Shown: piece by piece, positions 3,520-42,401 of the stretch
How the letters are laid out: each line of letters opens with the position of its first letter
How positions within the stretch are numbered: position 1 is the first letter of the stretch
Source: Candidatus Omnitrophota bacterium
GTDB taxonomy: Bacteria; Omnitrophota; Gorgyraeia; Aquiviventales; Aquiviventaceae
Reading direction: 5' to 3'
Assembly: GCA_016206585.1 (NCBI GenBank)
Contig: JACQRE010000158.1
Coordinates: 1 to 63,693, forward strand
Length of the DNA stretch: 63,693 nt
Program-made: the position numbers and the translations under genes
Notes under the pieces: generated by a model
Seen by the model: the letters and a program-made list of their open reading frames with translations, nothing else
The model's database searches: none
Told to the model about the DNA's origin: nothing

Positions 3520-3520
3520 G

Positions 3521-6253: not shown

Positions 6254-7212
6254 GAGTCCTCGTCACCGGCGGGGCGGGGTTCATCGGCTCCCATCTGTGC
6301 GACCGGTTTCTCCGGGACGGCCATGAGGTCGTCTGCGTCGATAACTTCCTGACCGGCAGCCGGACCAACATCGCGCACCTGCGTGCGCAGTCGGCGTTCC
6401 GGCTCATCGAGCACGACATCTCGAAGCCGCTCACCCTCGACGGGGCGATTGACGCGATCCTCCATTTCGCCTCGCCGGCCAGCCCGATCGACTACCTGAA
6501 GCTGCCCATCCAGACGCTGAAGGTCGGCTCGCTGGGCACGCTCAACGGCCTGGGGATCGCGAAGGCCAAGCAGGCGCGGTTCCTGCTCGCGTCGACCTCG
6601 GAGGTGTACGGCGACCCCAGCGTCCATCCGCAGCCCGAGAGCTACTGGGGGCACGTGAACCCGGTCGGGCCGCGCGGCGTCTACGATGAGGCCAAGCGGT
6701 TCGCCGAGGCGATCACGATGGCCTACCACCGGGAGCACCAGGTGGCCACGCGCATCGTGCGGATCTTCAACACGTACGGCCCGCGGATGCGCATGCAGGA
6801 CGGCCGGGCGATCCCGGCGTTCATCACGCCAGCGCTGCGGGGGGAGCCGATCACCGTGTTCGGGACGGGGGCGCAGACGCGCTCGTTCTGCTACGTGGAC
6901 GACCTCGTCGAGGGGATCGTGCGGCTGCTCCACTCCGATCACGCCGAGCCGATGAACCTGGGCAATCCGGAGGAGTACACGATCCTGCAGCTGGCCCAGC
7001 GCATCATCGAGGCCACGGGAAGCAAAAGCCGCATCGTCTACCAGACGCTGCCCCAGGACGATCCCAAGCAGCGGTGTCCCGACATCACGCTGGCAACGCG
7101 GACGCTGCAGTGGCAGGCGGCGACCCCGCTGGCCGCCGGGCTGCCGAAAACGATCGAGTGGTTCAGAACAGCCATGGGGCTGGCGTCCGCCGCAGGAGCG
7201 CGCCATGGCTGA
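6250..7212 (+). CDS. UDP-glucuronate decarboxylase (UDP-xylose synthase)
   Basis: [58 protein letters not shown]. Confidence 0.92.
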
Positions 7213-7621
7213 TCGACCTCCGCGTCCCTGGACCGCGATCGGGCTCGGCCTCGTGTTCGGCCTCTATGCCGTGCTCCTCGTCGCCGCGGTGCGCACGGGA
7301 GCACACCAGGCGTTCACCGGATGGACGGCGAAGCTGCTCACACTCGGCGGCATCGCCCTCGGGCTGCTGCCGTGGGGGGCGTGGCTACGGCCCCGGATCG
7401 TGTGGGGCCTGGGGCTTCTGGGGTGCTGGGCGCTGGTGGCGTGCTACCTCGTCCTGCTGGCACCCATCGCGCTGGTGGTCCGTCTCATCGGCGATCCGCT
7501 CAGCCGCCGGCGGCCCGCCCCCCCACCAACCAGGTTGGTGGGGGGGCCCGCCGGCTCCTCGCACTGGCTGGCGCGGCCCCCGCTGCCCAATACGCTTGAC
7601 GCTGCCCGTGTTGAGTACTGA
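7205..7621 (+). CDS. small polytopic membrane protein, SxtJ-like
   Basis: Three or four hydrophobic spans, then [13 protein letters not shown]. It lies immediately upstream of a carbamoyltransferase, as SxtJ-type genes do. Confidence 0.6.
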
Positions 7622-7752
7622 ATCACCAATGACCAAATTCCAAACACCACATAATCACCAAACATCAATGCACCAATCACCAAACCGTTTGGTGATTCGG
7701 TCATTGGTCCATTGGTCATTATGTGGTGATTGGAATGTGGTGTTTGGTTATT
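7621..7752. repeat. long imperfect hairpin, CACCAAn/TTGGTGA family, copy A1
   Basis: ~65-nt arms around centre CAAAC-C-GTTTG (7681-7691). AT-richer than the flanks. Starts at the last base of the SxtJ-like stop codon. Confidence 0.8.
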
Positions 7753-7768
7753 GCGAGCGTGCGGTGTG

Positions 7769-9595
7769 ATGCATATTCTGGGACTCTCCTGCTACTTCCA
7801 CGACGCGGCGGCGGCCCTCCTGCGCGACGGCGTGCTGATCGCCGCTGCGGAGGAGGAGCGGTTCTCCCGCACGAAGCACGACTTCGGCTTCCCGCGCCAC
7901 GCCATCGACTTCTGCCTGCGGCAAGGAGGCCTGACCGCGCAGGACCTCGACTACGTGGTGTTCTACGAGAAACCGTTCGTGAAGTTCCAGCGCATCCTCC
8001 AGTCGAACCTGCGGACGTGGCCGCGGTCCTGGCGCGCGTTTCCGGACGCGATGACCCACTGGATGCGCGAGAAGCTCTGGACGCGCACCCTCATCCAGGA
8101 AACGCTGGGGATCCCCGCGGAGCGGATCCTCTTTTCCGAGCACCACCTCTCGCATGCGGCCAGCGCCTTCTTCTGCGCGCCGTACGAGGAGGCCGCGATC
8201 ATCACGGTCGACGGGGTGGGGGAGTGGACCACGACGACGATGGGCCGCGGATCCGCCACATGGAACGGGCAGGGCCGCAACGAGATCGTCCTGTCGCACG
8301 AGATCCGCTTCCCCCACTCGCTGGGGCTGCTGTACTCCGCGTTCACCGCGTTCCTCGGCTTCGAGGTCAACGAGGGCGAGTACAAGGTGATGGGCATGGC
8401 GCCCTACGGGCAGCCGCGGTACCGCGATCGCGTGGCCCAGGTGCTGCATCTTGAACGCGACGGCAGCTTCTGGCTCGACCTCGACTACCTCAGCTACCAC
8501 TACTCCGACCGCCGCTCGTTCAGCCGCAAGCTCACGCAGCTCTTCGGCGAGCCGCGCGTGCCCGAGAGCGAGTTCTACACACGCTCGACCGGCCTGCCGG
8601 ACCGCCACGACGCGCGGAGGCTCGAGGCGAATGAGCACTACGCCGACGTCGCCGCCAGCATCCAGCAGGCGACCGAGGACGCGCTCCTGGCGATGGCGAA
8701 CCGTGTGCATGACGAAACCGGGCTCACGCGGCTGTGCCTGGCCGGCGGGGTGGCGTACAACAGCGTGGCGAACGGCCGGCTCCTGCGCGAAACGCCGTTC
8801 ACGGACATCTACATCCAGCCGGCGGCCGGCGATTCCGGCGGGGCGGTGGGGGCGGCCCTCTACGCCTACCACGTGCTGCTGCAGCGGCCCCGCGCGTTCG
8901 TGATGGACCACGCGTACTGGGGGGCCGCGTTTTCGGATGCCCAGCTCGAGGCCGCCCTGCGGGACCGGAACCTGGCCTTCGAGCGGTTCTCGGACGATGA
9001 GGAGCTGCTCGAGGAGGTCGCCGGAGCGCTCGCCGATGGGCGCGTGGTCGGGTGGTACCAGGGGCGCACCGAATGGGGCCCGCGGGCGCTGGGCAACCGC
9101 AGCATCCTCGCCGATCCGCGCCGGGCGGAGATGAAGTCGATCGTCAACGAGAAGATCAAGTTCCGGGAGCCATTCCGGCCCTTTGCCCCGTCGATTCTCA
9201 TGGACCGCGTGGCCGAGTACGTCGACTTCCAGGACAGCGACCGGCATCTCCCCGCCCAGTTCATGCTCTACGTGGCGGACGTGCGGCCCGAGCAGCGCAG
9301 CCGCATCCCCGCGGTGACGCACGCGGATGGCAGCAGCCGGCTGCAGGCGGTGTCCCCCAGGACCAATCCGCGCTACGCCCGGCTCATCGAGCGCTTCGAA
9401 GCGCGGACCGGGGTGCCCGTGGTACTCAATACCTCGTTCAACCTGCGCGGCGAGCCGATGGTCAACGCTCCGGCGGATGCGGTTACGACGTTCCTCAACA
9501 GCGGGATCGATTGGCTCGCGCTCGGGTCGTATCTCGTGCGGAAACCGGGAAGCGTCCGCGCCGACGCGCCGGCCCAGGCGGCCGCGGCAACGTGA
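7769..9595 (+). CDS. NodU/CmcH-family carbamoyltransferase
   Basis: MHILGLSCYFHDAAAALLRDG, EERFSRTKHD, LCLAGGVAYNSVANG, TSFNLRGEPMV. Confidence 0.93.
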   Translation: MHILGLSCYFHDAAAALLRDGVLIAAAEEERFSRTKHDFGFPRHAIDFCLRQGGLTAQDLDYVVFYEKPFVKFQRILQSNLRTWPRSWRAFPDAMTHWMREKLWTRTLIQETLGIPAERILFSEHHLSHAASAFFCAPYEEAAIITVDGVGEWTTTTMGRGSATWNGQGRNEIVLSHEIRFPHSLGLLYSAFTAFLGFEVNEGEYKVMGMAPYGQPRYRDRVAQVLHLERDGSFWLDLDYLSYHYSDRRSFSRKLTQLFGEPRVPESEFYTRSTGLPDRHDARRLEANEHYADVAASIQQATEDALLAMANRVHDETGLTRLCLAGGVAYNSVANGRLLRETPFTDIYIQPAAGDSGGAVGAALYAYHVLLQRPRAFVMDHAYWGAAFSDAQLEAALRDRNLAFERFSDDEELLEEVAGALADGRVVGWYQGRTEWGPRALGNRSILADPRRAEMKSIVNEKIKFREPFRPFAPSILMDRVAEYVDFQDSDRHLPAQFMLYVADVRPEQRSRIPAVTHADGSSRLQAVSPRTNPRYARLIERFEARTGVPVVLNTSFNLRGEPMVNAPADAVTTFLNSGIDWLALGSYLVRKPGSVRADAPAQAAAAT

Positions 9596-9604
9596 GGGGT
9601 GGGG

Positions 9605-9775
9605 ATGTCACGGATCGGATCGCGGGCGGGGATCGTCGGACGGTTGTTGCAGTACCTATGGCGGGAGCGGCTGTGGTGGCTGATCCCGGCGGTCATCATC
9701 TTGCTGGTCTTCGGCGGGCTGATTTTCTTCAGTCAGAGCTCGGCCGTCGCGCCTTTCGTCTACACGCTGTTTTGA
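9605..9775 (+). CDS. 56-aa hydrophobic mini-protein (DUF5989-like), absent from the supplied ORF track
   Basis: My own translation: [56 protein letters not shown]. It sits 9 nt after the carbamoyltransferase stop and 1 nt before gmd. Confidence 0.65.
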
Positions 9776-9776
9776 G

Positions 9777-11978
9777 GTGACCATGACACGCGCGCTGATT
9801 ACAGGCATCACGGGACAGGACGGCTCGTACCTGGCGGAGCTGCTGCTGCAGAAGGGCTACGAGGTGTTCGGGATCATCCGGCGCTCGAGCACCTTCAACG
9901 CCACGGTGCCCTTCAGCAAGGTGCTGCAGGAGTGGCAGGCCTCCGGCCAGCTGCACCTGGAGTACGGCGACCTCAACGATGCGAGCTCGCTCAACAAGAT
10001 CGTGCACTCCATCCGGCCGGATGAGATCTACAACCTCGCCGCCCAGAGCCACGTCCAGGTGAGCTTCGACATCCCGGAGTACACCGGCGAGATCACGGGG
10101 CTGGGCGTCGTGCGGTTGCTTGAGGCGATCCGCGAGAGCGACCTCAAGCCGCGGTTCTACCAGGCGTCCAGCTCCGAGCTGTACGGCCGGGTGCAGGAGA
10201 CGCCGCAGCGCGAGACGACCCCGTTCTACCCGCGCAGCCCCTACGCCTGCGCGAAGGCGTACGCGTTCTACATCACGCGCAACTACCGCGAGGCGTACGG
10301 CCTCTTCACCTGCAACGGAATTTTGTTCAATCACGAGACGGTAGCGTCATTTATGCCGATGTTTTGTAAGAACGTTGATGAGGATGAATTTGACATCAAA
10401 CCCATCTGTGAAATCGTCCCTTTTGATGAATCCAATACACAGTATCAAGCTCGAGAGGTTTCCGGAATTTGCGTCTGGGGAAAAGGCGCATGGGTCGATG
10501 TCTCGTATGCCTCCGCATATCCGCATGACGTGATGAGCGACAACAAGAAGCCCAGATTCATCAATGCTCGATCAGGGGCGTTCATGGCGACTTCGAGCCA
10601 TGTCGGCTTCATGGAAGGCGGCGAGGAAAGAGAAGTTGGCAGGATGAGCATTGGCGATCGTTTGGAGCAGCTCGATTTGCCGGAACCTTCCGGGCGAAAC
10701 CCCTATCCGATCTCTGAAGAGGAAGCCGAGCTCTTGGGCATGATGGTGGGGGATGGGTCCTTCACACGGTCGAGGCGGGGCATTGGCGTGCATGGAAAGT
10801 TTACCAATTCATGTCCTGAAATGCGTCAGCGCTTCAGCGACTTATGGTCAAAAGTCACAGGAGGACGCACCACCTATTACCCGACTCGTTCAGGCTTTAA
10901 TCCTGATAACATCGTGGGTCAACTCAGTCTCATAGGCCGAAATGACTGGTTGAGAAGTATAGACATTTATAACCGAGATAGAACCAAGCGCGTTCCCAAA
11001 GTCATTTTGAATTCCGGAAAAGCGATTATGCTGGCGTTCCTGCGCGGCTATAACGCGACCGACGGTCTCAAAAGTAACCCCTGCACGTACGAGTTTAGAA
11101 ACTTTAAGACAAATTCAGCCACATTGGCGATGGGGTTGTGGTATCTGATCGATCAGACCACCATGCAAGATGTCAATTTAACGGTCGAAACCAAAGCAGA
11201 TGGCCGCATCTTCTACTCACTGAACCTATTATCGACGACCGATAACCTCTCGAAGGAGCACAGCGTTCGTGAACTTGCGTTGGCAGACGTGTCTCAACGG
11301 GAAATATCACGCCGGACGGGCATCTCAAGAACCTTTATCCGTAAAATCCAGAACGGCGGTTCCGCATGCTTGACGCATCATCTGCGAAAGGAGTCCTCCG
11401 AAATCAAGAAAATCGTTGAAATGCCGAATTATCAGGGGTGGTTCTATGATCTTGAGACATCGTCGGGTGAATTTCATTGCGGCATTGGAACAATCCATGT
11501 TCACAATTCGCCCCGCCGGGGCGAGATTTTCGTCAGCCGCAAGATCACCCGGGCGGCGACCCGCATCAAGCTGGGGCTGCAGGATGCGCTGCTCCTCGGG
11601 AACCTGGAGGCGAAGCGCGACTGGGGTTACGCGCCCGAGTACGTCGAGGCGATGTGGCTCATGCTCCAGCAGGAGCGGCCGGACGACTACGTGATCGCCA
11701 CCGGCGAGACGCACTCGGTGCGCGAGTTCGTGGAGGAGGCCTTCGGCCACCTGGGCCTTCCGTGGGAGCGGTACGTGAAGACCGATCCGCAGTACCTGCG
11801 GCCCTCCGAGGTGGACGCCCTGGTGGGCGACGCCTCGAAGGCCGGGCGGCAGCTCGGGTGGCGCCCGAAAGTGAAGTTCAAGGACCTGGTGCGCATCATG
11901 GTCGATGCGGACCTGCTCGTGGCGGAACAGGAAGCGCACGCGCAGAGCTTCCAAGCGAAACCGCTCTCCGTGTCATAA
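9777..11978 (+). CDS. gmd: GDP-mannose 4,6-dehydratase interrupted by an in-frame intein (precursor 733 aa, spliced product 343 aa)
   Basis: [43 protein letters not shown] // [15 protein letters not shown]. The start may be the ATG at 9783. Confidence 0.93.
10338..11507 (+). mobile_element. 390-aa intein with a LAGLIDADG homing-endonuclease domain
   Basis: Block [19 protein letters not shown] motifs [11 protein letters not shown] and [13 protein letters not shown]. Blocks [25 protein letters not shown]|S. Visibly AT-rich compared with the flanks. Confidence 0.88.
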
Positions 11979-11980
11979 CC

Positions 11981-12062
11981 ACAGCCAGCAACAAGCAACA
12001 AGCGACACGCAGCACGTGAAGAATATTCTTTCCGTGTTGCATGTCGCATGTTGCATGTCGCG
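11981..12062. repeat. heptamer hairpin, GCGACAA/GCAACAA family, copy B1
   Basis: Left arm is ...AGCAACAAGCAACAAGCGACACGCAGCACG. The core is the palindrome AAGAATATTCTT (12019-12030). Right arm is CGTGTTGCATGTCGCATGTTGCATGTCGCG. Confidence 0.75.
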
Positions 12063-12079
12063 AATCGGATTGTTGTCCC

Positions 12080-13240
12080 ATGCACATTGGGATTGAAGGC
12101 CACGGGTTCTGGGGGGAAGGGGGCAGCCAGACCCGGTACGCCTTCCAGCTCATCAGAGCGCTCGCCCGCATCGACCGGACAAACCGCTACATCGTGTTCT
12201 TCAACTCGGCCCGTCGCCGGCTGCCCGGCCAGGGCCGGTTCAGGGAACAGCTCCAGAACGACAACTTCTCCTACGTCATGACCCGCCTGCCCAACACCGG
12301 TTCGCCCTGGCTCAAGCGGCTGCGCCGCGACGTGCTCTGGCCCTGGCGGGGCGCACAGCGCGGCATCGGGTTGTTCCACTCCACCGCCCAGCGCCGCATG
12401 TACACGAACGGGGTCGCCTCCGTGCTGACGATCCATGACCTCGCCGGGCTGGTGCACCCCGAATGGTTCCCGTCCGACTCGCTGGCGCACGAGCAGAATG
12501 CCACCGCCCTGCGGGACATCCGGCAGGCGCGCCTGACCATCGCCTCATCACGCAACACCCAACAGGACATCCAGCGCATGGCGGGCGTTGGGCTGGAACG
12601 GGTGCGGGTCGTCCTGCTGGGCGTCGACACCGGCGAGTTCCACCCCGTCGAAGATCCCGCCGCCATTGAGGCGGTGACCCGCCGGCTGGGCATCCGCGGC
12701 CCCTACCTGTTGCACGTGGGCGACCTGGTGCCGCGCAAGAACCTGGAGCGGCTCATCCGCGTCTTCGCGCGGCTGAAGGCGTCGAAGCGTCTCCCGCATC
12801 AGCTCGTGCTCGCCGGCAAGCGGAACTACGGGCCGCCCAGCCTGTTCGAGCTGCCGCGCGCGCTGGGTGTGGGCGACGACGTGCTGTTTCCCGGGTTCGT
12901 CGAGGAGGCGAATCTGCCGGCCCTCTACGCCGGGGCCGCGCTGTTCGTGTACCCCTCGTGCTACGAGGGGTTCGGGTTGCCGCTCCTGGAGGCGATGGCC
13001 TGCGGGGTGCCGGTGATCTCCTCCAACGCGGCCTCGTTGGTGGAGGTCGCCGGAGAGGCCGCCATCATCCTGGACCCCTCGGATGAAGCCGGGTGGGAGG
13101 AGACGATCGGGGATCTCCTGGACGATGACGCGACGCGGCGCGCCCTGATCGCGCGGGGGCTGGCGCACGTGCAGGGGTTCACGTGGGACAAGACGGCTAA
13201 GCAGACGCTCGCCGCGTACCGCGAGTTGGGAGCCGACTGA
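12080..13240 (+). CDS. GT4-family glycosyltransferase (paralogue of 17418..18575)
   Basis: MHIGIEGHGFWGEGG..., YPSCYEGFGLPLLEAMACGVPVISS. Confidence 0.9.
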   Translation: MHIGIEGHGFWGEGGSQTRYAFQLIRALARIDRTNRYIVFFNSARRRLPGQGRFREQLQNDNFSYVMTRLPNTGSPWLKRLRRDVLWPWRGAQRGIGLFHSTAQRRMYTNGVASVLTIHDLAGLVHPEWFPSDSLAHEQNATALRDIRQARLTIASSRNTQQDIQRMAGVGLERVRVVLLGVDTGEFHPVEDPAAIEAVTRRLGIRGPYLLHVGDLVPRKNLERLIRVFARLKASKRLPHQLVLAGKRNYGPPSLFELPRALGVGDDVLFPGFVEEANLPALYAGAALFVYPSCYEGFGLPLLEAMACGVPVISSNAASLVEVAGEAAIILDPSDEAGWEETIGDLLDDDATRRALIARGLAHVQGFTWDKTAKQTLAAYRELGAD

Positions 13241-13375
13241 GAATCACCAATGACCAAGCACCAAACACCACATAATCACCAATGGACCAATGACCGAATG
13301 ACCAAACGGTTTGGTGATTGGTGCATTGGTGTTTGGTGTTTATGTGGTGATTGGAATTTGGTGTTTGGTGATTCG
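13241..13375. repeat. CACCAAn-family hairpin, copy A2, inverted relative to A1
   Basis: It fills the whole stop-to-start gap. The centre is CAAAC-G-GTTTG, the reverse complement of the A1 centre. The reverse complement of its right arm matches the A1 left arm at 60 of 65 positions. Confidence 0.8.
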
Positions 13376-13377
13376 AA

Positions 13378-14220
13378 ATGAATATGCCGCCTGTTGTGAT
13401 CCTGTGCGGGGGCCGCGGCACCCGCCTGCGCGAGCGGACCGAGAGCATCCCGAAGGCGCTCGTCGAGATCGGCGGCCGGCCGATCCTCTGGCACATCATG
13501 AAGATCTACGCGTCGTTCGGCTGCCGGCGGTTCATCCTCTGCCTCGGATACAAGGGCGACCAGATCCGCCGGTGCTTCACGGGACGGCGAGGGGCTGTCC
13601 CTCGACTCGCCACCGTGTCTTCCGCACGGGGCTCGCTCGGGACTCCGCCCCCTGACGAGGTTCAGGGGGGCTCCGCGCGCGGTGCAGTCGGGATGGAGGA
13701 CACGGTGGAGCACCGCGAGGCGGGGCAGACGTGGACGATCACCTTCGCCGACACCGGCGTGGACACCAACAGCGGCGGGCGCCTCGCCCGCATCGTCCCG
13801 CGGCTCGAGGCCTCACTGGCCTTTGTGACGTACGGCGACGGGCTGGCGCGCATCGACCTGGAGGAGCTCCTGGCGTTCCACGAGTCGCACAGGCGGCTGG
13901 CCACGGTCACCTGCGTGCGGCCGGCGTGCCCCTTCGGCGTCGTCGAGGTGGGCGGCGAGGACCAGGTGACGGCGTTCCGGGAGAAGCCCCCGATGCGGGA
14001 CTGGGTGAACGGCGGCTTTTTCGTCTTCGATCGCCAAGCGCTCGACGGGTTCGGGGACGACGAGGTGCTCGAGCGCGAGCCGCTCGAGCGGCTGACGCGG
14101 GCGGGGCAGCTGTCCGCCTACCGGTTCGACGGGTTCTGGATGTGCATGGACACCTACAAGGACGCCCAGCAGCTCAACGTGCTGTGGGAGCGCGGGGAGG
14201 CGCCATGGAAAATCTGGTAG
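13378..14220 (+). CDS. rfbF: glucose-1-phosphate cytidylyltransferase
   Basis: VILCGGRGTRLRE, PKALVEIGGRPILWHIMKIY, GYKG, VNGGFFVF, GFWMCMDTYKD, APWKIW. About 23 aa are inserted after GYKG. Confidence 0.88.
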   Translation: MNMPPVVILCGGRGTRLRERTESIPKALVEIGGRPILWHIMKIYASFGCRRFILCLGYKGDQIRRCFTGRRGAVPRLATVSSARGSLGTPPPDEVQGGSARGAVGMEDTVEHREAGQTWTITFADTGVDTNSGGRLARIVPRLEASLAFVTYGDGLARIDLEELLAFHESHRRLATVTCVRPACPFGVVEVGGEDQVTAFREKPPMRDWVNGGFFVFDRQALDGFGDDEVLEREPLERLTRAGQLSAYRFDGFWMCMDTYKDAQQLNVLWERGEAPWKIW

Positions 14221-15233: not shown

Positions 15234-15238
15234 GCCCT

Positions 15239-15333
15239 CAGCGACATGCGACATGCGACAAGCAACACTTCAACCGCCGATCCTTTAAGAGCTTGGTGGT
15301 TCCGTGTTGCATGTTGCTTGTCGCTTGTCGCTG
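15239..15333. repeat. GCGACAn-family hairpin, copy B2
   Basis: 30-nt arms at 15239-15268 and 15304-15333 are complementary at 26 of 30 positions. The loop is 35 nt. Confidence 0.8.
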
Positions 15334-15343
15334 ATACTCCTGT

Positions 15344-16383: not shown

Positions 16384-17358
16384 ATGAAAACGGCATTACT
16401 GGAATGGCTGGCGTGTCCCGCGTGCCGGGGCACGCTGCGCCTGGCACAGCCGGTGCACCAGGGCGAGGAGATCGTCTCCGGCGCGCTGGGCTGCGAGAGC
16501 TGCTCGCGCGCCTACCCGATCGTGCGGGGGATCCCCCGCTTCGTCGCCGACGACAGCTACGCCGGCAACTTCAGCTTCGAGTGGAACCGGTTCCAGACCA
16601 CCCAGCTCGACAGCCGGCAGCAGCGCGGCGAGTCGGAGCGGCGCTTCCGGCAGAGCCTCGACATCCCGCTGGAGCAGCTGAAGGGGCAGCTCGTCCTGGA
16701 CGCCGGCTGCGGGATGGGCCGCTTCGCCGAGATCGCCCTCCATCACGGGGCCACGGTCGTGGCGATGGACCTCAGCTTCGCGGTGGACGCGGCGGCGAAG
16801 AACCTCTCGCCGCAGCCCGACGCTCACGTGGTCCAGGCGAACCTCTTCGCCCTGCCGTTCCGCCCTGAGACGTTCGACCTGATCTACAGCCTCGGCGTGC
16901 TGCACCACACGCCCAACCCCCGGAAGGCGTTCGAGGGGCTGGTGGAGCTGCTCAAGACCGGCGGGAAGATCAGCGTGACGCTCTACAGCGGCTATAACAC
17001 CGTCTACGTGCGCTCCACGAGCTTCTGGCGGTTCGCGCTGAAGCGGCTCCCCGGCCGCTGGCTCTACCGCCTGTCGCACCTCGCCATCCCGTACTACCAC
17101 CTCTGCCGGATCCCGCTGCTCGGGTTGGGGTTTCAGGCGCTGTTTCCCATCAGCATGCACCCGGATCCCGAATGGCGGGTCCTCGACACCTTCGACTGCT
17201 ACAGCCCCACGTACCAGTCCTACCACACCCACCACGAAGTGTTCCGGTGGTTCAAGGAGGCGAACTTGACCGGCGTCGAAGTGCTGGAACCAGGCATCTC
17301 GTTAATTGGTGGAAAGCGCACAGTCAGCGACAAGCGACAAGCAACAAGCAGCACTTGA
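16384..17358 (+). CDS. class I SAM methyltransferase with an N-terminal Trm112-like zinc ribbon
   Basis: LEWLACPACRG...CESCSRAYPIVRGIPRF, then VLDAGCGMGRF and LLKTGGKI. Confidence 0.85.
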   Translation: MKTALLEWLACPACRGTLRLAQPVHQGEEIVSGALGCESCSRAYPIVRGIPRFVADDSYAGNFSFEWNRFQTTQLDSRQQRGESERRFRQSLDIPLEQLKGQLVLDAGCGMGRFAEIALHHGATVVAMDLSFAVDAAAKNLSPQPDAHVVQANLFALPFRPETFDLIYSLGVLHHTPNPRKAFEGLVELLKTGGKISVTLYSGYNTVYVRSTSFWRFALKRLPGRWLYRLSHLAIPYYHLCRIPLLGLGFQALFPISMHPDPEWRVLDTFDCYSPTYQSYHTHHEVFRWFKEANLTGVEVLEPGISLIGGKRTVSDKRQATSST

Positions 17359-17400
17359 AGAATATTCTCACGTGTTGCCTGTCGCTTGTTGCCTGTTGCT
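17321..17400. repeat. GCGACAA-family hairpin, copy B3
   Basis: Left arm CAGTCAGCGACAAGCGACAAGCAACAAGCAGCAC, core TGAAGAATATTCT, right arm CGTGTTGCCTGTCGCTTGTTGCCTGTTGCT. Confidence 0.75.
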
Positions 17401-21779: not shown

Positions 21780-22975
21780 TCACCGTCTTGCATCTCTCGC
21801 ACTGCCTCAACCGCTACGACTATATCGACGCGGTGATCCGGCACGCGGACCCCGCGCAGTTCCGCATGCTGGCCGCGACGCTGACGGATGACGGCTCGGT
21901 GCGTCCCGGGGCGGCGCCGTATCCGGTGACCGTGTTGGGCGTGCGCGCCCGGACCCAGTGGCCGGCTGCGGCGGCGGCGCTGCGGCGCCTGTGCCGGAGC
22001 GAGCGCGTGGACGTCGTCCATACGCACAATCTCGATTCGACGGCGATCGGCGCCTTCGCCGCGCTCGGCATCCGCCGGGTGCGGCTCGTCATCGGGCGGC
22101 ACTACGCGGATGCGCTCTATCAGCTGCGCCCCGCCTGGAAGTGCCGCGCCCTCCTGGCGCTGGAAGGCTGGTGCAACCGCCGCGCGGCGCGCCTCATCGC
22201 GCCCTCCTCCATGGTGCGCGCGATCCTCGTGGAGCGTCAGCGCGTGCCGGCGCGGCGTGTCGCGCAGATTCCGTACGGGTTCGACTTCGCCAAGCATCAG
22301 GCGTCCGTGGATGCGCCGGCACGGCTGCGGCGCGAGCTGGGGCTGGAGGGGGCGGCCGTGCTGGGCAGCTTCTCGCGGTTGAACGCCGATAAAGGGCACG
22401 CCGATCTGTTGCGCGCCTTCGCCCGGCTGCAGCCGGGGCGGCCCACGCTGCGCCTGCTCCTCGTCGGGGAGGGGAACGTCAGGCCGCGCCTTGAGGCGCT
22501 GGCCCGGGAGCTCGGCGTGCAGGAGCGGGTGCGGTTCGCCGGGTGGCGCGCGGATGTCATCGACCTCATGGCGATGGCGGATGTGGTCGCGCACCCCTCG
22601 CTCCACGAGGCGTTCAGCCAGGTGATGGTGGAGGCGCTGGCCATGGGCAAGCCGCTCGTGATCACCGACGTGAGCGGTGTCGCCGATGTCGTGCGGGATG
22701 GCTGGAACGGGCTCATCGTCCCGAAGGCGGATCCGGCGGCGCTGGCGGCGGCGGTCACGCGGCTGCTCGACCATCCCGAGGAGGCCGCCGCAATGGGCGC
22801 GCGCGGGCGCGCGCGGGTGCGCCGCGAGCTGGACATCCACGTCATCATCACACAGTACGAAGCGGTCTATCGGAACGTGATGGGGCAGGAACAATCACCA
22901 AACACCAAATCTCAATCACCAAATAATCACCAAGATCCAATCACCAATGACCAAACAATTGAGGTCATCGCGTAG
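21776..22975 (+). CDS. GT4-family glycosyltransferase
   Basis: VAHPSLHEAFSQVMVEALAMGKPLVITDVSG. The last ~30 aa are a translation of the left arm of repeat A3. Confidence 0.88.
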   Translation: MITVLHLSHCLNRYDYIDAVIRHADPAQFRMLAATLTDDGSVRPGAAPYPVTVLGVRARTQWPAAAAALRRLCRSERVDVVHTHNLDSTAIGAFAALGIRRVRLVIGRHYADALYQLRPAWKCRALLALEGWCNRRAARLIAPSSMVRAILVERQRVPARRVAQIPYGFDFAKHQASVDAPARLRRELGLEGAAVLGSFSRLNADKGHADLLRAFARLQPGRPTLRLLLVGEGNVRPRLEALARELGVQERVRFAGWRADVIDLMAMADVVAHPSLHEAFSQVMVEALAMGKPLVITDVSGVADVVRDGWNGLIVPKADPAALAAAVTRLLDHPEEAAAMGARGRARVRRELDIHVIITQYEAVYRNVMGQEQSPNTKSQSPNNHQDPITNDQTIEVIA

Positions 22976-23041
22976 TTGTTTGGTGATTGGTGTTTGGTTA
23001 TTGGAGCTTATTTGGTGATTGGAATTTGGTGATTGGTGATT
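22893..23041. repeat. CACCAAn-family hairpin, copy A3
   Basis: ~66-nt arms at 22893-22958 and 22976-23041, with a 17-nt loop. The stop codon of the upstream GT4 lies in the loop. Confidence 0.8.
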
Positions 23042-41183: not shown

Positions 41184-42308
41184 ATGCGCATCCTCGCCGT
41201 TGCCACCAATCCCGAGACCGGTGCCAGTACCCGCTTCCGCGTCCTCCAATGGGCGCCGGTGCTGGAGCGCGAGGGGTTTTCGCTGGCGGTCGAGCCCTTC
41301 TACTCCCCCCGGGCCTCGGCGGTGCTGTATCGGCGCGGCCGGCCGCTGGGCAAGCTCTCGCATTTCATCCGCGGTGCCATCCGGCGCCGCGCGGTGCTCG
41401 CCCGCGCGTCCACCGAGGCCGAGATCCTCCTCATCCACCGGGAGGCGTTTCCGCTGGGTCTGCGCTGGTCGCTCGGCGCGGTCAAGCGGTTCGGCGGGCC
41501 CCTCCTCTATGATTACGACGACGCGATGTTCGTGCCGCAGCGGCAAGGGCGGGGAGTGCTCGCGCGGCTGGAGCACCTCGACACCCCGAAGGAGCTCATG
41601 GCGCTGAGCGACGTCGTGCTGGCCGGCAACGAGTTCCTCGCCGCGTACGCGCGCCGGTACGCGCGCCGCGTCGTCCTGCTGCCCACCTGCATCGACACGG
41701 CGCGGTTCAGGCCCGGACCCGCATCCGAGCCAGACGGCCGGCCCCTCACCATCGGCTGGATCGGCAGCCACTCGACGACCAAATACCTGGAGAGCGTCAA
41801 GCCGGTGCTGGAGCGGCTCGGTGCCGGCCTCCCGTTTCGCGTCTCCATCGTGGGCAGCGCAGTACCGCTGAGGCTGCGCGGCGTCGAGGTCAGCCAGACC
41901 GCCTGGGCGCTCGAGCGCGAGGCGGAGGATTTTGCGCGCTGCGACATCGGCGTCTATCCGTTGTGGGACGACCCGTGGAGCCAGGGCAAGTGCGGGTTCA
42001 AGGCGATCCAGTTCATGGCCTGCGGCGTGCCCGTCGTCGCCTCCGCGGTCGGAGCGAACCGCGAGATTATCCAGGACGGCGTCAACGGGTTCCTCGCCGC
42101 CACACGCCAGGAGTGGCTCGAGAAGCTGGGCCGGCTGCTCACCGATGCCGCCCTGCGCGCGCGGCTGGGCGAGGCGGGGCGGCGGACCATCGAGGAGCGC
42201 TATTCTCTGGCGGCACAGGCGCCACGGCTCGTTGGAGCGCTGCGCGAGGCGCTCACGAACCACAGAAGCACAGAGACAGTGCCACAGAAGCACAGAGAAG
42301 AGCAATGA
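41184..42308 (+). CDS. GT4-family glycosyltransferase
   Basis: IGWIGSHSTTKYL, KCGFKAIQFMACGVPVVASAVGANREII. The C-terminal tail (NHRSTETVPQKHREEQ) is a translation of repeat C1. Confidence 0.85.
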   Translation: MRILAVATNPETGASTRFRVLQWAPVLEREGFSLAVEPFYSPRASAVLYRRGRPLGKLSHFIRGAIRRRAVLARASTEAEILLIHREAFPLGLRWSLGAVKRFGGPLLYDYDDAMFVPQRQGRGVLARLEHLDTPKELMALSDVVLAGNEFLAAYARRYARRVVLLPTCIDTARFRPGPASEPDGRPLTIGWIGSHSTTKYLESVKPVLERLGAGLPFRVSIVGSAVPLRLRGVEVSQTAWALEREAEDFARCDIGVYPLWDDPWSQGKCGFKAIQFMACGVPVVASAVGANREIIQDGVNGFLAATRQEWLEKLGRLLTDAALRARLGEAGRRTIEERYSLAAQAPRLVGALREALTNHRSTETVPQKHREEQ

Positions 42309-42384
42309 CCAATTACCAAGGCTCCTTTTGGTGTTTGGTAATTGGCTTTCTCTGTGTTTCTGTGGGATTCTGTGGTTCTGTGGT
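42259..42384. repeat. mosaic hairpin C1 (CACAGAA outer arms, CCAAT/TTGGT inner arms)
   Basis: ACCACAGAAGCACAGAGACAGTGCCACAGAAGCACAGAG...CCAATTACCAA / TTGGTGTTTGGTAATTGG...CTCTGTGTTTCTGTGGGATTCTGTGGTTCTGTGGT. Confidence 0.8.
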
Positions 42385-42401
42385 GTCGGGAGCCGTGTGA
42401 C

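Follow-up and report, generated by a model that had tools for sequence, protein, structure and literature searches.

The window analyzed here, a 63,693-nucleotide stretch of DNA (contig JACQRE010000158.1, assembly GCA_016206585.1) from a Candidatus Omnitrophota bacterium, includes a sugar operon on the + strand in which two closely related elements, named A1 (nucleotides 7621 to 7752; the start may also be set at 7620) and A2 (nucleotides 13241 to 13375), occupy gaps between genes. An initial annotation had described them as inverted copies of one asymmetric hairpin that bracket a 5.5-kb gene block and could permit its inversion or its exchange as a cassette. The analysis described below makes it probable that A1 and A2 are dispersed fold-back repeats, similar in kind to repetitive extragenic palindromic (REP) sequences and MITEs (miniature inverted-repeat transposable elements), that are located at gene junctions and have spread by copying. 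The source genome (G000) is a 1.385-Mb metagenome-assembled genome (MAG) of groundwater origin, 74% complete, consisting of 178 contigs with a G+C content of 67%, and the order-wide comparison set comprised 37 genomes from 33 genera (labels beginning with G, such as G007, G009, G031 and G032, stand for genomes or genera of the order, those beginning with C for contigs and those beginning with L for loci).

A1 and A2 are each an imperfect palindrome of about 132 nt that fits exactly between the stop codon of one gene and the gene that follows; like the other hairpins described here, they carry no strand assignment. A1 begins with the last base of the TGA codon (7619-7621) of a weakly SxtJ-like open reading frame (ORF) and its 3′ end, a degenerate GGTTATT, is found 19 nt before the ATG (7772) of a carbamoyltransferase gene. 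A2 begins directly behind the stop codon (TGA, 13238-13240) of a glycosyltransferase gene of the GT4 type and ends 2-3 nt ahead of the ATG (13378) of a nucleotidyltransferase gene, with 5 nt between its terminal GGTGATT and this ATG. With a G+C content of about 0.40-0.43 both elements are AT-richer islands in a window of about 67-70% G+C. Their existence at these coordinates is confirmed by the sequence and by the predicted RNA folds, each of which is a single long imperfect stem-loop (A1, −65.6 kcal/mol, z −8.75; A2, −74.4 kcal/mol, z −10.3) that was equaled by 0 of 200 shuffled sequences. The arms are of the CACCAA heptamer type, with the unit CACCAAn/TTGGTGn, which has no G3 tract; they can be read as NNACCAA units, and the unit TGACCAA is present within the arms of both elements.

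Global alignment gave 120 identities over 138 columns for A1 and the reverse complement of A2, and 117 over 139 for the direct comparison. The first 65 columns of the former alignment hold five mismatches, in agreement with the 60 of 65 matching positions reported in the initial annotation between the left arm of A1 and the reverse-complemented right arm of A2. Its figure of about 75-80% for complementarity of the arms within each element also stands, as alignment of each element to its own reverse complement gave 80% for A1 and 78% for A2, and the centers do differ, being AAAC-C-GTTT in A1 and AAAC-G-GTTT in A2. The opposite orientation of the two elements was confirmed only in part. When each element was cut at its ATAAT/ATTAT landmarks and the parts were aligned separately, the inner 50 nt, consisting of arm β, the loop and arm α′ (7662-7711 in A1 and approximately 13283-13332 in A2), matched at 48 of 50 positions in inverted orientation and at 40 of 52 in direct orientation, but for the two outer 41-nt arms the direct comparison (75 of 82) was better than the inverted one (71 of 84). 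Position 24 of the outer arm is A|T in both elements, i.e. in the direct sense, and the second heptamer has TG in the 5′ arm and AC in the reverse-complemented 3′ arm in A1, A2 and the copies on contigs C34, C116 and C139, this TG/AC mark being swapped in the copies on C70, C152 and C162. These outer-arm asymmetries coincide when the two elements are read in the same direction, and by them A1 and A2 count as direct repeats. In A1, C34 and C116 the α arm (...TGGACCAATGACCGAAT...) is the 3′ one of the inner arms, in A2, C89, C70 and C152 the 5′ one, and each of the two possible linkage phases between outer mark and inner arm is present among the copies. The relative orientation of A1 and A2 is thus modular, with the core inverted and the outer arms direct.

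When the core is allowed to flip, no other two copies in the genome are as similar as A1 and A2, with 93.2% identity (outer arms direct, core inverted), followed by A1 and C34 with 90.4% identity module by module, and a derived variant, CACAT/ATGTG, is common to both arms of A1 and A2. Their longest exact identities are 28 nt in inverted and 22 nt in direct orientation. These comparisons lead us to regard A1 and A2 as probable sisters, one with its core flipped relative to the other. The proposal that they are homologous copies of one element and not hairpins of independent origin is therefore upheld.

Mapping of copies throughout the source genome revealed at least 14 loci with CACCAA/TTGGTG clusters, and both core orientations are represented. 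Within the window the 16-nt word AATCACCAATGACCAA was found 19 times when up to three mismatches were allowed, against an expectation of 0.11, and a third full-length element, A3 (22893-23041), has a predicted fold of −81.8 kcal/mol (z −12.9). The full-length copies on different contigs have an identical order of non-periodic landmarks, which can be summarized by the consensus AATCACCAA-NNACCAA-ATTCCAA-NNACCAA-ATAAT-...core...-ATTAT-...-TTGGAAT-...-TTGGTGATT, the arms being composed of degenerate CACCAAn heptamers. Beyond the source genome, a pattern of four ACCAANN units was found in 14 of the 37 genomes and 14 of the 33 genera of the order, and the reversed control pattern had almost zero matches in most of these positive genomes. 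Twenty loci fetched from genus G032 have an architecture equal to that of the CACCAA elements of the source genome. The high copy number is also reflected in the source metagenome, where the k-mer depth is about 895 within A1 and 14 in the unique flanks, and where unitigs from public runs over nucleotides 7200-8200 are short and end within the repeat. The landmarks and derived variants shared across loci and genera argue for spread by copying.

The flanks of 14 CACCAA copies contained neither a target-site duplication nor a common target word, and a search of the window against Rfam returned zero family matches. Among 11 copies, outer-arm pairing amounted to 85.1% within a copy and 87.1% with shuffled partners, double changes in the pairs numbered two against 5.6 expected, and certain mismatches were conserved; the pairing looks inherited rather than selected.

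Some of the elements are nested. A composite hairpin at nucleotides 42251-42393 consists of a CACCAA hairpin (42300-42345) in the loop of a hairpin of the CACAGAA type and adjoins the 5′ side of a 639-amino acids ORF; hairpins within hairpins were seen in G032 as well. In addition, the CACCAA elements at six G032 loci (L129, L134, L135, L139, L142 and L145) include small GC-rich inserts, TGTCCGCCATACAGCATGGCGGATCCGCCAAT...GGCGGAGA and GGCGGGCAAG...TTGTCCGCC, in their loops, arms or ends, which resemble members of another, very small family of repeats that lands in hairpins.

The comparison with other genera defines an empty site for A1. The ORF upstream of A1 (7205-7621, + strand) codes for 138 amino acids and shows a match to Pfam SxtJ of 13.3 bits, which is below the cut-off; tblastn detected homologs with 41-43% identity at loci L095 and L096, located in G009 and G007 beside the gene for the carbamoyltransferase. 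The stop and start codons of the ORF homolog and the carbamoyltransferase gene overlap in G009 (...GAGTATTGATGCAC..., GAG TAT TGATG CAC), and a 5-nt spacer separates the two genes in G007. In the source genome 150 nt are found between the end of the ORF (VEY*) and the start of the carbamoyltransferase (MHILG), with end and start residues as in the relatives. Because the genes that flank A1 abut in G009 and G007, A1 is an insertion relative to these genera, at a translationally coupled junction. The sequence comparison thus indicates that A1 splits a conserved triad formed by the SxtJ-like ORF, the carbamoyltransferase (7772-9595, + strand; NodU/CmcH type, Carbam_trans_N 276 bits and Carbam_trans_C 235 bits) and a 56-amino acids DUF5989 membrane protein (9605-9775, + strand; PF19451, 64.7 bits), which was the mini-ORF of the initial annotation. 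This is the opposite of a cassette border. A GC-rich palindrome, GCCGGCGGCCCGCCCCCCCACCAACC A GGTTGGTGGGGGGGCCCGCCGGC, with 21-nt arms that are 90% complementary, was noted at 7506-7555, 65 nt 5′ of A1 and within the 3′ part of the SxtJ-like ORF; the k-mer depth in the metagenome is raised there as well (141 against 14).

The CACCAA elements are not the only elements of this kind in the genome. Detection of period-7 tracts combined with local self-alignment (a gapless scan misses A1 and A2, whose arms differ by indels) identified 190 period-7 tracts, compared with 0-26 for each of the other periods between 4 and 12. Grouped, the tracts make up 184 clusters, and 87 of these have a strongly palindromic structure; other words include GAGTKCG, GCRACAA, ACGTGTN, GATGTTC, GAGTGAC, CAGGCTG, GCGCGTT and AAGTCAA, and CACCAA thus belongs to a set of at least ten heptamer-built hairpin families in this genome. 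Many hairpins have one mismatch per heptamer, e.g. GAGTTCG opposite GAGTGCG or GCAACAA opposite GCAACAT, and this mismatch is often identical in many copies of a family, as seen for the T opposite C in 12 GAGTTCG/GAGTGCG hairpins. Hairpin boundaries taken from the folds ran too far into the GC-rich flanks and were dropped.

The mean density of hairpins in the genome is about one per 7.5 kb, and those found outside called genes are located between co-directional genes in 38 cases, convergent genes in two and divergent genes in five, counts that are approximate as the gene caller was rough and missed, for example, the gene at 13378-14220. In 29 of the 38 co-directional cases at most 25 nt separate the hairpin from the upstream stop codon (median 12), and in 24 the downstream start codon is equally near. 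Another 31 of the 87 strong hairpins fall within roughly called ORFs and may be in-frame insertions or products of miscalled starts. Most gaps of at least 60 nt between 3.5 and 23 kb of the window contain a heptamer hairpin (at 3520, 4553, 7621, 11988, 13241, 15238, 16321, 17326 and 22893). One of these, of the GCAACAA/GCGACAA type with one mismatch per heptamer, is located at 11988-12061 between gmd and the GT4 gene, inside the supposed block; the next gap downstream includes a GCGACAT/GCGACAA-type hairpin (15238-15334), and a further GCGACAA-type hairpin is found at 17326-17400. The hairpins at 11988-12061 and 17326-17400 share the non-repeat apical core GAAGAATATTCT, which indicates that the GCGACAA family also has a defined center that is copied. 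As brackets of the block A1 and A2 are thus not unique: with a hairpin inside the block and others in the neighboring gaps, they are neither its sole nor its natural borders. Heptamer arrays in this family of Omnitrophota are not always hairpins, since at locus L100 (G031:C4, 1440-3026) non-complementary arrays adjoin one another, with four units of GAGACAG beside four of TTGGTGC, in addition to TGCTGAG, CTTGTCT and CACTGGT arrays; these arrays precede, and in part extend into, the leader regions of three prepilin-like genes in a row (..FTLVELI.. motifs).

The following sequence of events probably accounts for these observations. New copies would arise by copying of existing ones without duplication of the target, and would persist since operon junctions tolerate hairpins. 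As part of the operon transcript the hairpins would form long stems in which mismatches recur regularly. The flip that distinguishes A1 from A2 would be an event inside the palindrome and not of the 5.5-kb block, and may have occurred by recombination or template switching between the arms of one element or, as a second route, by re-insertion of the core module into the loop. The pair A1/A2 would have no role specific to the block, and recombination between copies would be rare and accidental.

Several points weigh against the interpretation of A1 and A2 as repeats dispersed by copying. The empty sites at A1 come from other genera, with 77% amino acid identity, and not from close strains. The mechanism of copying left no target-site duplication or conserved flank in the 14 copies, and the transposase genes described below have other flanking repeats and do not track the CACCAA-rich genomes. 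A1 and A2 are closest relatives and yet only 5.6 kb apart, which makes an interaction at short range likely, for example gene conversion or copying within the region. Hairpins are concentrated in the glycan cluster, with nine in 19.5 kb compared with one per 40 kb in the rest of the window. Finally, there is an excess of sense-strand G-U pairs (64 vs. 44, p = 0.067) and the sense strand is the more stable one in 24 of 38 hairpins (p = 0.08), weak biases that leave room for a role at the RNA level. The p value of 0.067 was obtained with a symmetric test; a first comparison of sense G-U with A·C loops had been highly significant but was asymmetric and was discarded.

Such a role, which is compatible with a selfish origin of the repeats, has a modest probability: the hairpins would act as intercistronic RNA stem-loops that protect the upstream message against 3′-exonucleases, serve as processing sites or couple the translation of neighboring genes. 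For coupling, the 5′ sequence AAUCACCAA would pair with the Shine-Dalgarno-like 3′ sequence UUGGUGAUU, and a ribosome arriving at the stop codon upstream would melt the stem at its base, which would make the next start accessible. GGUGAU is complementary to the usual 16S rRNA tail, AUCACC, the 3′ end of the 16S rRNA being missing from the source MAG. The close placement of the hairpins, which start 0-25 nt behind the upstream stop codon in most cases and end at most 25 nt from the next start in many, is consistent with this idea, as are the ATG codons found 5-7 nt behind a terminal GGTGATT in five CACCAA copies (A2, C139, C98, C152 and C89). An element inserted in either orientation gives a transcript with the CACCAA side (AAUCACC) first and the TTGGTG side (GGUGAUU) last; no terminator-like T-runs follow the hairpins, and A1 occupies a site where relatives have the overlapping TGATG of a coupled junction. 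On the other hand, compensatory covariation is absent, the bias toward G-U pairs and stability on the sense strand does not reach significance (p about 0.07), the other heptamer families have no Shine-Dalgarno-like 3′ word, and GGTGA precedes only 3% of confident ATG starts. The relatives manage without a hairpin at the A1 junction, and A1 itself, since it ends in GGTTATT 19 nt before the ATG, cannot mask that start.

A more speculative proposal, which we consider unlikely, is that in this Omnitrophota family an undescribed, hairpin-directed process places copies of heptamer fold-backs at stop/start junctions and turns their inner modules around in vivo. The flip/flop relation of A1 and A2 and the nested hairpins would then be footprints of extruded DNA hairpins that were cut and resealed or re-copied, and the elements could in addition act as translational-coupling switches in which the anti-Shine-Dalgarno-like 5′ end masks the Shine-Dalgarno-like 3′ end.

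It is very unlikely that each hairpin was born in place, by slippage on a 7-nt seed followed by fold-back copying, with favored words as the reason for the likeness among copies. This possibility would account for the many different words in the source genome, for the adjoining arrays of non-complementary words in G031 and for the single mismatch per heptamer, which is expected if arms homogenize separately. Heptamers have also been described as the commonest long simple-sequence repeats of bacteria, with polymerase slippage as the proposed cause, in the summaries given in PMC4679880 and PMC4692102. However, the landmarks ATTCCAA, ATAAT and TGGACCAATGACCGAAT and the TG|AC mismatch are found in constant order across contigs and genera, and A1 and A2 are 93% identical when compared module by module. 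Slippage in place may explain the birth of a family, but not A1 and A2.

There is also little to recommend the elements as non-autonomous REPIN-like sequences (REP doublets that form hairpins) mobilized in trans by REP-associated tyrosine transposases (RAYTs), i.e. Y1 enzymes of the IS200/IS605 type acting on single-stranded hairpins, a mode of movement that we regard as quite improbable here. The genome includes two Y1_Tnp genes (C66:311-1110, locus L093, and C120:1560-2345, locus L094), with 246-amino acids frames and HxH and YVELNP motifs, that match PF01797 with 50.5 and 45.7 bits and the NCBIfam model REP_Tyr_transpos with 70.7 and 67 bits, the latter scores being below the 80-bit cut-off. 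Both are flanked by inverted repeats (AGAAAAATGGTACCGGTTCT... and GAATTC(C/A)GGGGACAGTATA), as RAYT genes are, and the missing target duplications fit Y1 transposition. Nevertheless, neither of the flanking repeats (AATGGTACCGGTTCT, GGGGACAGTATA) is a heptamer hairpin, their copy numbers are only 3-7, and the two genes stand against at least ten hairpin families. CACCAA-rich genomes such as G031 (93% complete), G004 and G043 showed no match to Y1_Tnp, and many CACCAA-free genomes have several, up to nine, a comparison that is weakened by the incompleteness of MAGs. A link between the RAYT-like genes and the CACCAA hairpins is thus not supported, in view of the different flanking repeats and of the lack of co-distribution over the 37 genomes.

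The block delimited by A1 and A2 consists, besides the carbamoyltransferase and DUF5989 genes, of gmd (9777-11978, + strand), which codes for a GDP-mannose 4,6-dehydratase with a LAGLIDADG intein (GDP_Man_Dehyd, 445 bits in two stretches, and LAGLIDADG_3), and the GT4 glycosyltransferase gene (12041-13240, + strand; Glycos_transf_1, 116 bits); it is followed by a sugar-phosphate nucleotidyltransferase gene (13378-14220, + strand; NTP_transferase, 69 bits). The intein is located at 10338-11420, between FNHE and SPRRG, appears to start with Thr (TVASFMPMF...) and to end with ...HVHN, and the G+C content over it is low (47-54% at 10250-11450, in a genome of 67%). G009 has a gmd without intein and another 4 kb between this gene and that for the carbamoyltransferase. 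Among named relatives, a Candidatus Omnitrophota MAG is the nearest, its carbamoyltransferase being 77% identical. Exact-protein look-ups with the 138-amino acids ORF, the GT4 and the carbamoyltransferase returned zero records, a metagenome scan with the GT4 as query returned zero relatives above 40% identity, and zero RNA runs were found to contain the region.

The proposal made in the initial annotation, that A1 and A2 are recombination substrates whose activity inverts, deletes or exchanges the carbamoyltransferase/DUF5989/gmd/GT4 module and so varies the decoration of a surface glycan, could draw on the inverted inner cores (48/50, exact run of 28 nt), on the outer arms as direct repeats (exact run of 22 nt), on the closeness of A1 and A2, unmatched by any other pair of copies in the genome, on the variation of glycan clusters among genera, of which G009 is an example, and on the density of hairpins in this cluster. 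The minimal length for efficient RecA recombination in Escherichia coli is approximately 23-27 bp, and the runs of identity between A1 and A2 are at or below this length. No recombinase gene was found in the window, the serine recombinase family Resolvase is absent from the 74%-complete genome, and the only two matches to tyrosine recombinases (Phage_integrase) are on contigs C167 and C176, outside the window. No promoter-like site was detected between nucleotides 3000 and 18000, nor terminator-like T-runs behind the hairpins; since the block has no internal promoter-like site, an inverted block would lie antisense to the operon. No other arrangement of the block turned up in the sequences that could be retrieved, of which the unitigs end within the repeat. 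Taken with the many further copies and families, including one hairpin within the block, with the direct outer arms and with the interruption of a conserved triad at a point that is no module border, these results lend no support to an invertible or exchangeable cassette, which we consider extremely unlikely, and programmed or recurrent rearrangement of the 5.5-kb block in any form is hardly to be expected.

An invertible cassette, if it were real, would imply phase-variable glycan decoration in an uncultured nanobacterium, and the lack of support for it averts a wrong annotation. More interesting than the A1/A2 pair is the hairpin phenomenon of the genome as a whole, in which hairpins of families common to several genera occur about once every 7.5 kb in 1-2 Mb of DNA and are fitted, almost to the nucleotide, between stop and start codons. 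A clade with many families, empty sites and flip variants is a good system in which to ask if such hairpins are selfish DNA, a by-product of replication or punctuation of operon mRNAs. On the practical side, heptamer hairpins break short-read assemblies and mislead the choice of gene starts.

Among known systems, the elements described here can be compared with the heptameric long simple sequence repeats (LSSRs) and short tandemly repeated repetitive (STRR) sequences of bacteria. Mazel et al. are said to have described the cyanobacterial STRR heptamers in 1990, of which STRR2, TTGGTCA, is the reverse complement of the TGACCAA unit of A1 and A2. To our knowledge, no function or origin of bacterial heptamer repeats has been accepted since then. 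An excess of heptamers in many bacteria was reported by Mrazek in 2007, who proposed polymerase slippage, as summarized in PMC4679880 and PMC4692102, and heptamer arrays of Nostoc affect the expression of recF and recO (bioRxiv 10.1101/2022.06.06.494920). The CACCAA elements resemble these repeats in their tandem 7-nt arms, in the excess of period 7 (190 tracts vs. 0-26), in their intergenic location, in the presence of TGACCAA and in convergent arrays able to form a stem-loop. They differ from them in that LSSR and STRR sequences have been described as direct arrays, of perfect units, whereas the elements of the source genome are inverted hairpin pairs of degenerate NNACCAA units.

In Xanthomonas, 70-75 convergent pairs of GGGAATC arrays are able to form stem-loops, most arrays are transcribed, their length differs between relatives and they have no known function; the Nostoc word is GGGGAYT (PMC4692102). 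The likeness includes tandem 7-nt units, an intergenic location and, for the hosts, a GC-rich genome. However, in Xanthomonas one G-rich word that forms quadruplexes predominates, and the Omnitrophota genome, from a host with a small genome, has at least ten unrelated words, with neither a G-tract nor a G-quadruplex unit in CACCAA, and palindromes of about 132 nt with faithfully copied landmarks. TAACTGA arrays are found beside start codons in Beggiatoaceae, cyanobacteria and Bacteroidetes, where a post-transcriptional role is suspected, and one indirect repeat was recorded among 170 sets (PMC4679880). The elements described here share with them the location within a few nt of start codons and the presence in distant lineages, but TAACTGA arrays are direct and of a single word, and the hairpins are inverted, built of many words and also placed beside the upstream stop codon.

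REP sequences are stem-loops of about 20-40 nt, often arranged as inverted doublets. As multicopy extragenic palindromes located mostly between co-transcribed genes, with the potential to fold in the mRNA, with no target duplications and with RAYT-like genes in the same genome, the CACCAA elements can be compared with REP sequences, bacterial interspersed mosaic elements (BIMEs) and the REPIN-RAYT system; they differ in size, being heptamer palindromes of about 132 nt, and in the lack both of a cognate repeat flanking the RAYT-like genes and of co-occurrence across genomes, the latter point being weakened by MAG incompleteness. Unlike MITEs, the 14 copies have no target-site duplication. Invertons have inverted repeats at both ends of a segment, an internal promoter or alternative gene ends, and a site-specific recombinase nearby; only the 50-nt core is inverted between A1 and A2, the block has no promoter-like site, and no such recombinase gene is near it, in a genome that is 74% complete. 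Since each of them fails in a tested defining feature, the elements belong neither to the G-rich Xanthomonas family nor to REPIN-RAYT systems or invertons.

Small hairpin-associated inversions are known from non-coding chloroplast DNA, and palindromic termini exist as flip and flop isomers. The presence of the core in both orientations with the outer stem fixed, as in A1 and A2, recalls these cases, but as a mechanistic analogy only, the flip being deduced here from 11 copies and not from polymorphism at one locus. A search of the literature found no description of such heptamer elements in Omnitrophota. What is new with respect to the published cases is the coexistence of many word families in one small genome, the long palindromes with a copied consensus, the exact positions that the hairpins take up between stop and start codons, and the modular orientation of core and outer arms.

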